Positions 4,864 through 5,463 of a DNA stretch of 8,299 bases are shown piece by piece. The stretch is from the IMG/VR virus record IMGVR_UViG_2579778916_000005; one strand, written 5' to 3'. Within the stretch, counting starts at the first letter, position 1. Each line of letters starts with the position of its first letter. The notes below the pieces were generated by a model. The model saw only the letters and a program-made list of their open reading frames with translations, was not told where the DNA came from and made no database searches. The position numbers were made by a program, and so were the translations under genes. Origin of the DNA: a virus (taxonomy: Duplodnaviria > Heunggongvirae > Uroviricota > Caudoviricetes).

Positions 4864-5463
4864 TCAGAATTTATAACCGACACCAACGATGAAACTGTTG
4901 GTACGCCAGTCACCGCTGCCGGAGCCTTCATAAGCGACGTCAACGGCCACGGATTCGGTCGGGTTAAACTGCACGCCAGCTCCCCACGCCAGAGACGTGT
5001 TGCTGTGGCGACCGTCATCACTTCCGGTCAGCACATCGTGCGTTTTCCCCTTGTTGTCAGTTACGCGGATATAATCCCCGGAGAAAGTCGACACACGGCT
5101 GTAAGCCATACCCGCCATCGCATACGCGCTGAACCATTCATTCACGCGCACAGACGGCCCCGCCATCACGCTGAACCAGCGATTACGCACGGAATCCTCA
5201 TGCCAGCGGGTATCGCTGTAATGCGTTTTTTGCTCATCTTCAGCGTTGGCATAACTGAATGACGTAATCAGCCCCAGCGTGTCCGTAAACTCATAACGGT
5301 ATTTCACGTTAATCCCGTTCAGATTATCGCTGCCGGGAGCGTTCGTACGGGCATGAAGATACCCTGCGCTCAGTGTGGCCTGCTGCTCAGACGCCCATGC
5401 AGGCGCACCGGATACGGCCAGACAGATGGCTGCGGACAAAATGGCTGCACAAACTTTACGCAT
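4864..5463 (-). CDS. lom: Lom outer-membrane protein (Ail/Lom/OmpX family 8-stranded beta-barrel), 199 aa, copy B
   Basis: The N-terminus MRKVCAAILSAAICLAVSGAPAWA-SE is a typical signal peptide with an AxA cleavage site; the C-terminus ends GYKF (terminal aromatic residue typical of outer-membrane barrels). Overall strong resemblance to lambda Lom. A Shine-Dalgarno GAGAGG lies 5 nt upstream of the ATG. It sits between J-type and stf sequences, as in lambda. Confidence 0.93.
   Translation of the reverse strand: MRKVCAAILSAAICLAVSGAPAWASEQQATLSAGYLHARTNAPGSDNLNGINVKYRYEFTDTLGLITSFSYANAEDEQKTHYSDTRWHEDSVRNRWFSVMAGPSVRVNEWFSAYAMAGMAYSRVSTFSGDYIRVTDNKGKTHDVLTGSDDGRHSNTSLAWGAGVQFNPTESVAVDVAYEGSGSGDWRTNSFIVGVGYKF

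Follow-up and report, generated by a model that had tools for sequence, protein, structure and literature searches.

The two lom genes in the window, by which we mean the whole 8,299-nt stretch of prophage DNA analysed here, differ from each other chiefly through a 33-nt cassette that exists in two discrete forms. We think it likely that this is an old two-form cassette, swapped and spread among prophages by recombination, and that the two copies came from separate modules and were joined illegitimately. Both lom genes are intact. Genes of this kind are accessory to lambdoid prophages, in which they lie between J and stf with terminators on both sides, and Lom is predicted to be an eight-stranded barrel of the Ail/OmpX type. 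The cluster of differences is the cassette (gene nt 210-242), in the two forms present in the E. coli prophage population, and in the structural model it encodes the part of strand beta3 that protrudes toward the tip of loop L2, beside the other variable spot, loop 1. Because the forms are too divergent, silent sites included, recent point mutation is not the source of the difference; long ago, one form would have replaced the other as a block. Since then, each form would have stayed nearly unchanged while homologous recombination carried it from prophage to prophage, with breakpoints concentrated directly 3' of codon 81. The presence of both forms side by side in the window would reflect two different J-lom-stf modules and one illegitimate join at a 3-nt microhomology, with no divergence of a duplicated gene.

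Open reading frame calling and a profile search placed every gene of the window on the minus strand, in the transcription order J C-terminus, lomA, stf stub, truncated J, lomB, stf and tfa. J copy 1, the C-terminal 301 aa of a tail tip/host specificity protein (7394..8299), leaves the window at its right edge into a scaffold gap; it carries PF09327 and PF12421, matches gpJ structures in the PDB, and has a receptor domain (RBD) of type 1. Both lomA (6724..7323) and lomB (4864..5463) encode 199 aa and are flanked by the tail-tip gene J on one side and the side-fibre gene stf on the other, all on the same strand, and the same order is found in annotated phages. LomA has the basic G-type cassette (GDKNRQLTR) and matches PF06316 with an E-value of 1.4e-122, and LomB has the acidic N-type cassette (NAEDEQKTH) and matches the same profile with an E-value of 1.4e-125. 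The stf stub between the modules (6441..6665) covers positions 1-66 of PF08400; its homology to Stf stops at nt 6466, after ~65 aa, and past this point the stub is out of frame and then meets a stop. In a protein search, no record of this 72-aa stub as a called protein was found. J copy 2 (5531..6468) is truncated at its 5' end and retains the last ~312 codons, with PF09327, PF12421 and an RBD of type 0, and it is probably a non-functional remnant. The full-length side tail fibre Stf (1401..4799, 1132 aa) and the tail fibre assembly protein Tfa (820..1401, 193 aa, PF02413) both belong to the downstream module, which we call module B.

Terminator-like hairpins flank each lom gene on both sides. 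Those located directly 3' of lomB (4816..4837) and of lomA (6676..6697) are of the intrinsic type and identical to each other. On the 5' side, the hairpin search identified one in the gap between the J remnant and lomB (5493..5512), and the gap between J copy 1 and lomA holds its homologue (alignment columns 88-116), a hairpin with a T-run (7350..7375, inverted repeat I5). No sigma-70 consensus promoter was found ahead of lomA or lomB in the window sequence. Some other parts of the window also deserve mention. The region 3' of tfa (1-820) is AT-rich (GC 0.29-0.36), without a convincing ORF or tRNA, and lies 100% identical and unannotated beside tfaQ in many complete E. coli genomes. An Rfam match to IS009 (RF02111) at 860-1058 on the minus strand, which scores 212 bits (gathering score 117), falls wholly within the tfa coding sequence. 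The Ala/Ser-rich centre of stf (3300-4500), with a GC content of ~0.6, yields long ORFs that are spurious, both out of frame with stf and on the plus strand, for example 3373-4302 (+) and 3395-4402 (-).

Comparison of the window with itself revealed a repeat of ~1,860 bp with two pairs of matching stretches, 4606-5548 with 6466-7411 (90%) and 5969-6418 with 7851-8299 (92%). The J RBDs lying between these stretches (5531-5970 and 7394-7850) were too divergent for nucleotide alignment, which implies, as far as sequence can tell, that they would recognize different host receptors. For each J fragment, PDB chain 9wca_J ('A8 gpJ 713') was a better match than lambda gpJ. Each of the two modules has its own relatives among single-copy loci. 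Module A (8299..6466) is 99.9% identical to and collinear with the loci L089-L091, and module B (6468..2367) is collinear at 97% with loci such as L030, from position 1496 of L030 onward; module B together with the AT-rich DNA downstream is single-copy in complete genomes such as that of strain D6. The same division holds for the proteins, as LomB has a 100% identical counterpart in L001 and L002 and LomA has 99% identical counterparts in L081-L102. Since each copy matches its own single-copy module, the difference between the two Lom alleles is older than their union in the window. Similarity to stf extends as far as 6466 (118 loci) and similarity to J begins at 6468, leaving 3 nt common to both parents (6466..6468), and the join has the appearance of an illegitimate event at this 3-nt microhomology.

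The first-pass annotation had remarked that two lom copies in one tail region are unusual, and the databases agree with it. A single J-lom-stf copy was present in all the listed phage records (249 matched) and in all the listed complete E. coli genomes, and only one of 160 IMG/VR loci (L069) has two lom genes. The latter was rejected as an independent second tandem, as one N stands precisely where its repeats meet (3143-3145), and it is probably a scaffolding artefact. The module join of our window was not encountered anywhere else in 5,426 complete E. coli genomes, 50,697 phage records, IMG/VR, species-representative genomes and JGI metagenomes. This lack of a counterpart in any collection searched, along with the N at the join of the sole other tandem, raises the question of whether the tandem in the window might itself be an artefact of a draft assembly, the strain having two separate prophages with one lom each. 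The source is indeed a draft scaffold (KK736383.1 of GCA_000692575.1), and the contig begins inside J directly after a gap of 2,412 N (L161 1818-4229). However, the join contains no N and only 3 nt are shared there, whereas graph assemblers mis-join via long shared k-mers. Moreover, the layout is plausible for a viable phage, with 1.86 kb added, undamaged stf and tfa genes and, as far as it is visible, an undamaged J copy 1. We therefore regard an assembly artefact as possible but rather unlikely. The result on the cassette is independent of whether the tandem is such an artefact.

In a gap-free BLASTP alignment, the LomA and LomB proteins were identical at 178 of 199 residues, the differing ones being 27, 29, 39, 42, 47, 66, 73, 74, 75, 76, 77, 79, 81, 119, 132, 141, 174, 176, 189, 190 and 195. 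Seven of these 21 differences fall within residues 73-81, where copy B reads ANAEDEQKTH (nt 5221-5247) and copy A reads AGDKNRQLTR (nt 7081-7107). The first-pass annotation had started from this cluster, and its count and positions were reproduced. At least seven of 21 differences in any 9-residue window of a 199-residue protein are expected with a probability of ~1.6e-4 (scan, 100,000 permutations). In the DNA, 18 of the 27 nt of the segment differ; when the 56 nt differences were permuted 100,000 times, this number was never reached. Several codons within residues 73-81 have multi-nucleotide changes. The segment has a net charge of about -2 as NAEDEQKTH and of about +2 as GDKNRQLTR. The other non-conservative differences (39, 42, 47, 141, 189 and 190) also map to extracellular parts in the predicted structure.

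Outside the segment, the signal peptide, the strands and the C-terminal GYKF had been described as almost invariant. Between the two copies this holds: the signal peptides (residues 1-24) are identical in protein with two synonymous changes in DNA, the five differences in membrane strands are all conservative (I/V, M/V, V/I, V/I and V/I), and GYKF is the same in both. Across the Lom clade, however, it fails for the signal peptide, which is as variable as the cassette segment. By the Nei-Gojobori method, the cassettes of A and B gave a pS of ~1.0, which is saturated, and a pN of 0.53, and the rest of lom gave a dN/dS of 0.038/0.194. Because the silent sites of the cassette are saturated, a dN/dS above 1 between the forms is not demonstrable and the ratio is undefined.

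Repeats of several kinds were seen within the lom genes. Both genes have a 10-nt direct repeat, CGCTGAACCA, with its units 42 nt apart at 'WFS' codons (5127-5136/5169-5178 and 6987-6996/7029-7038), and a MAG...MAG repeat 48 nt apart. Lom proteins of 185/213 aa and 183/215 aa in the databases have matching indels of -/+14 and -/+16 residues near the periplasmic turn between beta4 and beta5, which suggests that lom indels at direct repeats arise by recurrent slippage. An imperfect inverted repeat, 84-93% complementary with its arms 145 nt apart, brackets L1 and the cassette in both copies (5186-5204/5350-5368 and 7051-7064/7210-7223); it is coding sequence (LHA and WHED codons), and its position around the variable regions is probably due to chance.

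Both Lom proteins are members of PF06316 (Ail_Lom) over profile positions 1-199 of 199, scoring 417 and 407 bits where 23 would suffice, and were assigned to PHROG 108, 'Lom outer membrane protein'. PADLOC had no model matching Lom. The N-terminus, as read from the sequence, has a hydrophobic helix at 2-17 and then A-W-A before S-E at 22-26, and the C-terminus is G-Y-K-F with an aromatic last residue, the signal for barrel assembly. A sequence search of the PDB with Lom retrieved lambda Lom (9wso, E 3.4e-48), Ail and OmpX. AlphaFold2 (AF2) gave a pLDDT of 59 on 27 close alleles and a mean pLDDT of 91 on an alignment of 54 sequences including distant representatives, which came from an exhaustive family search; around the segment the pLDDT was 96 (residues 71-80) and 95 (81-90). 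The model has eight strands, beta1 29-40, beta2 47-58, beta3 63-81, beta4 86-106, beta5 111-135, beta6 141-166, beta7 172-181 and beta8 188-198, with the tip of L2 at 82-85. Following the topology of OmpX and Ail, in which both termini are periplasmic, the short turns 59-62, 107-110 and 167-171 would be on the periplasmic side. The first Foldseek matches of the model were Ail (3qrc and 3qra) and OmpX (1qj9), with TM-scores of 0.78-0.85.

The hydrophobic thickness of lambda Lom is ~25 A (PMC12309495). As about 10 residues per strand are needed to span a membrane of this thickness, the membrane part of beta3 is 63-72, ending at F69/Y71. Residues 73-81 are predicted to continue beta3 outside the cell, protruding beyond the aromatic girdle (F69 and Y71) to just below the tip of L2. 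An exposed location of the segment had been proposed before, and both the AF2 model and the Ail/OmpX fold support it by putting the segment on the extracellular extension of beta3. With side-chain orientations taken from strand alternation rather than from coordinates, residues 73, 75, 77, 79 and 81 would face outward, and all five differ between the copies; of the positions that would face inward, 74 and 76 differ and 78 and 80 are conserved.

For the comparison of alleles, we used 160 IMG/VR loci, the 80 closest to each copy, which yielded 158 lom genes, all of 199 codons; this sampling is biased, in that it inflates the linkage disequilibrium (LD) inside lom and fixes the ratio of the forms at about 50:50. 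The 158 alleles fell into two discrete forms, acidic N (NAEDEQKTH) and basic G (GDKNRQLTR), with rare single-residue variants of each. There were 13 spellings of the cassette, all of them minor variants of the two forms, and five alleles were missed by the search pattern; a later classification of 131 unique lom sequences placed none outside the two forms. Between the forms the cassette DNA diverges by 62%, compared to 3-8% within a form, and the rest of lom diverges by 6% between forms and 3-5% within them. Perfect LD was restricted to gene nt 210-240 and fell sharply past nt 243. We thus place the cassette at gene nt 210-243 (codons 70-81), that is, at 5221..5254 in lomB, from the LD block and the AF2 model, and at 7081..7114 in lomA, from the LD block and the copy alignment. 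Within the forms, the cassette has a pN/pS of 0.04 (N) and 0.20 (G), and these low values indicate purifying selection on each form. The N form itself comes as two DNA haplotypes that encode the same peptide and differ only at three synonymous sites.

Both forms are widespread. Among 5,426 complete E. coli genomes, a 75-nt probe of the N form had 4,990 matches spread over 2,934 genomes, and a G-form probe had 8,400 spread over 3,382; all the matches were at least 90% identical to the respective form, and many genomes had both. Among representatives of Lom clusters at 90%, each form occurred with several types of signal peptide and of L1. In these representatives, which are the less biased set, the mature Lom of the clade has only two variable spots, the L1 region (~1.2-1.3 bits of entropy) and the segment (1.06 bits), and the other extracellular parts (0.04-0.41 bits) show roughly the same conservation as the membrane strands (0.29 bits). 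A variability hotspot among many alleles had been foreseen in the first-pass annotation; the segment is indeed one of the two variable spots, but with two forms only, and the word 'hypervariable' does not suit a segment for which 158 alleles and all the genome matches resolve into one form or the other. A dN/dS above 1 across lom alleles from the databases was not found either, the ratio being undefined between forms and the pN/pS low within them.

In distant members of the family, position 73 is frequently G and the residue after it charged, and the G form, which resembles the wider family, is probably the older one, judging from the alignment. No donor of the N form was found. Other origins of the cassette were considered. 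A diversity-generating retroelement (DGR) or an invertible (shufflon) segment was rejected, as the window consists of tail genes and lom only, without the parts required. The only long repeat in the window is the module duplication, and the short inverted repeats in the coding sequence are of chance-like quality. A compensated frameshift or an inversion found no support either, the two 33-mers, judged by eye, displaying no shifted or reverse-complement similarity. We also noted that three Lom variants of 299, 275 and 259 aa (P0001, P0002 and P0003) have large internal tandem duplications of the barrel, which may be real rearrangements or assembly errors.

The cassette forms are associated with the type of the adjacent J RBD. 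When the last 150 residues of J were clustered for the same IMG/VR loci, RBD type 1 (that of copy 1) occurred with the G form in 59 loci and with the N form in none, and of the loci with RBD type 0 (that of copy 2), 72 had the N form and 13 the G form; the G form was seen with at least three RBD types. The r2 between J type and lom sites was 0.5-0.75 up to codon 81, below 0.35 beyond it and ~0 past codon 105. For the cassette the r2 was ~0.65, compared to 0.75 for codon 13, a site nearer to J. In the IMG/VR loci, co-adaptation of cassette and J found no support, as there was no linkage beyond that of nearer sites; because the cassette is not tied to J more tightly than these are, plain linkage suffices for the association. 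In sequence terms, lom appears to straddle a mosaic boundary, its 5' 40% travelling with the J RBD and its 3' 60%, together with the start of stf, being common to all.

This pattern invites the explanation that the cassette is a neutral relic of one ancient block replacement without functional effect, which stays frequent only by hitch-hiking with a strongly selected J RBD. The cassette does lie inside the linkage block that runs from the J RBD to lom codon 81, and its r2 is what plain linkage predicts. However, the changes within each form are mostly silent, so the sequence of the cassette matters; three or more J RBD types accompany the G form, and both forms are reassorted against the L1 and signal-peptide types; and the charge is reversed on an exposed face whose functional importance is known from Ail. 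For these reasons we consider a neutral relic unlikely. The first-pass annotation had read the cluster as diversifying change on an exposed loop. This would amount to a duplication of lom inside the prophage and positive selection that changed one copy fast, and although the segment is extracellular in the model, seven of its nine residues differ with several multi-nucleotide codon changes, and outer membrane protein loops are classic targets of such selection (PMC3417512), this is most improbable, because each copy has 99-100% identical single-copy counterparts and is flanked by a J receptor domain of an unrelated type, the silent sites of the segment are saturated against a flank dS of ~0.19, and there are two forms only, each under purifying selection.

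With the old, exchanged two-form cassette as the preferred explanation, its adaptive significance can be considered. Lambda Lom has been linked to the adhesion of bacteria to buccal cells. Its location in the outer membrane and its production in the lysogen have been reported, for lambda Lom only (PMC12366544, PMC12309495). When overexpressed, lambda Lom protects against lambda-vir and not against T7, which suggests an exclusion of related phages (2025; PMC12366544). Loops 2 and 3 of Ail together make up a basic site outside the barrel that binds heparin, and the similarity within the family is highest in the membrane strands (PMC3417512). By analogy, the cassette swap probably re-charges the exposed face of Lom and changes what the protein binds, which might be LPS or a ligand of the host, following Ail, or else the tail of a phage, following the exclusion of lambda-vir. 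Considering the charge change on the exposed face and the purifying selection on each form, we suggest that two binding specificities are the most likely meaning of the two forms. A further step would be that the acidic and basic cassettes are two Lom specificities kept under balancing selection in E. coli and deciding which phage tail (J/Stf) is blocked or which host or LPS ligand is bound. This reading draws on the high frequency of both forms, the purifying selection on each, the exposed charge reversal, the association with J type and the report on lambda-vir exclusion; it is speculative, and we would call it doubtful at present. If it were true, a prophage with both forms of Lom, as in the window, would widen its specificity.

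The lom genes described here are ordinary members of a well-known family, and the dimorphism is a modest new description. Lom is nevertheless among the commonest accessory genes of E. coli prophages, and the 5,426 complete genomes contain more than 13,000 copies of the two forms taken together. With two variable exposed spots, one of them two-state and charge-reversing, and the rest conserved, the protein offers a simple experimental handle on Lom binding. Our results also advise caution when a cluster of differences between neighbouring paralogues is to be read as local diversification, as the copies here came from different phages.

The closest characterized relative is lambda Lom (206 aa), present in PDB entry 9wso as 'Outer membrane protein lom' (chain C and one more). 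The partner chains in that entry are not relatives of J, Stf or Tfa, for which both J fragments, Stf and Tfa were queried, and a literature search on the code returned nothing relevant. Lambda Lom shares with our proteins the PF06316 profile, the gene position between J and stf, the predicted eight-stranded barrel, the signal peptide and the C-terminal aromatic residue. However, the identity is only ~50%, its loop 1 is longer by 8 residues and its beta3 extension (AASKKSSTVM) is unrelated to either cassette. Unlike lambda Lom, the Lom of the window belongs to a clade of 199-aa proteins common in E. coli prophages.

Compared with Ail and OmpX (PDB 3qra, 3qrc and 1qj8/1qj9), Lom has the same fold (TM 0.78-0.85), with conserved membrane strands and variable extracellular parts, and in the model K75, R77 and R81 of the G form would be in a place equivalent to the basic site in loops 2 and 3 of Ail. 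The identity to these proteins is 27-31%, and the beta3-beta4 and beta5-beta6 hairpins are longer in Lom. In contrast to the family-wide pattern in Ail/OmpX, most of the extracellular surface in the Lom clade is as conserved as the membrane part.

The hypervariable (HV) regions of neisserial Opa proteins are loops under antigenic or phage-driven diversification. They resemble the Lom cassette in their exposed position on a small beta-barrel. The cassette differs in having two states only, each of them conserved and without an excess of amino-acid changes within states. A better parallel may be found among the lambdoid phages, which evolve in a modular fashion, exchange mosaic alleles of surface proteins by recombination and carry accessory 'moron' genes. 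Like such alleles, lom has discrete types, sharp homology boundaries, free reassortment with its flanks and flanking terminators. What sets lom apart is that its exchange boundary is intragenic, right after codon 81, and that the exchanged cassette is only 33 nt long.
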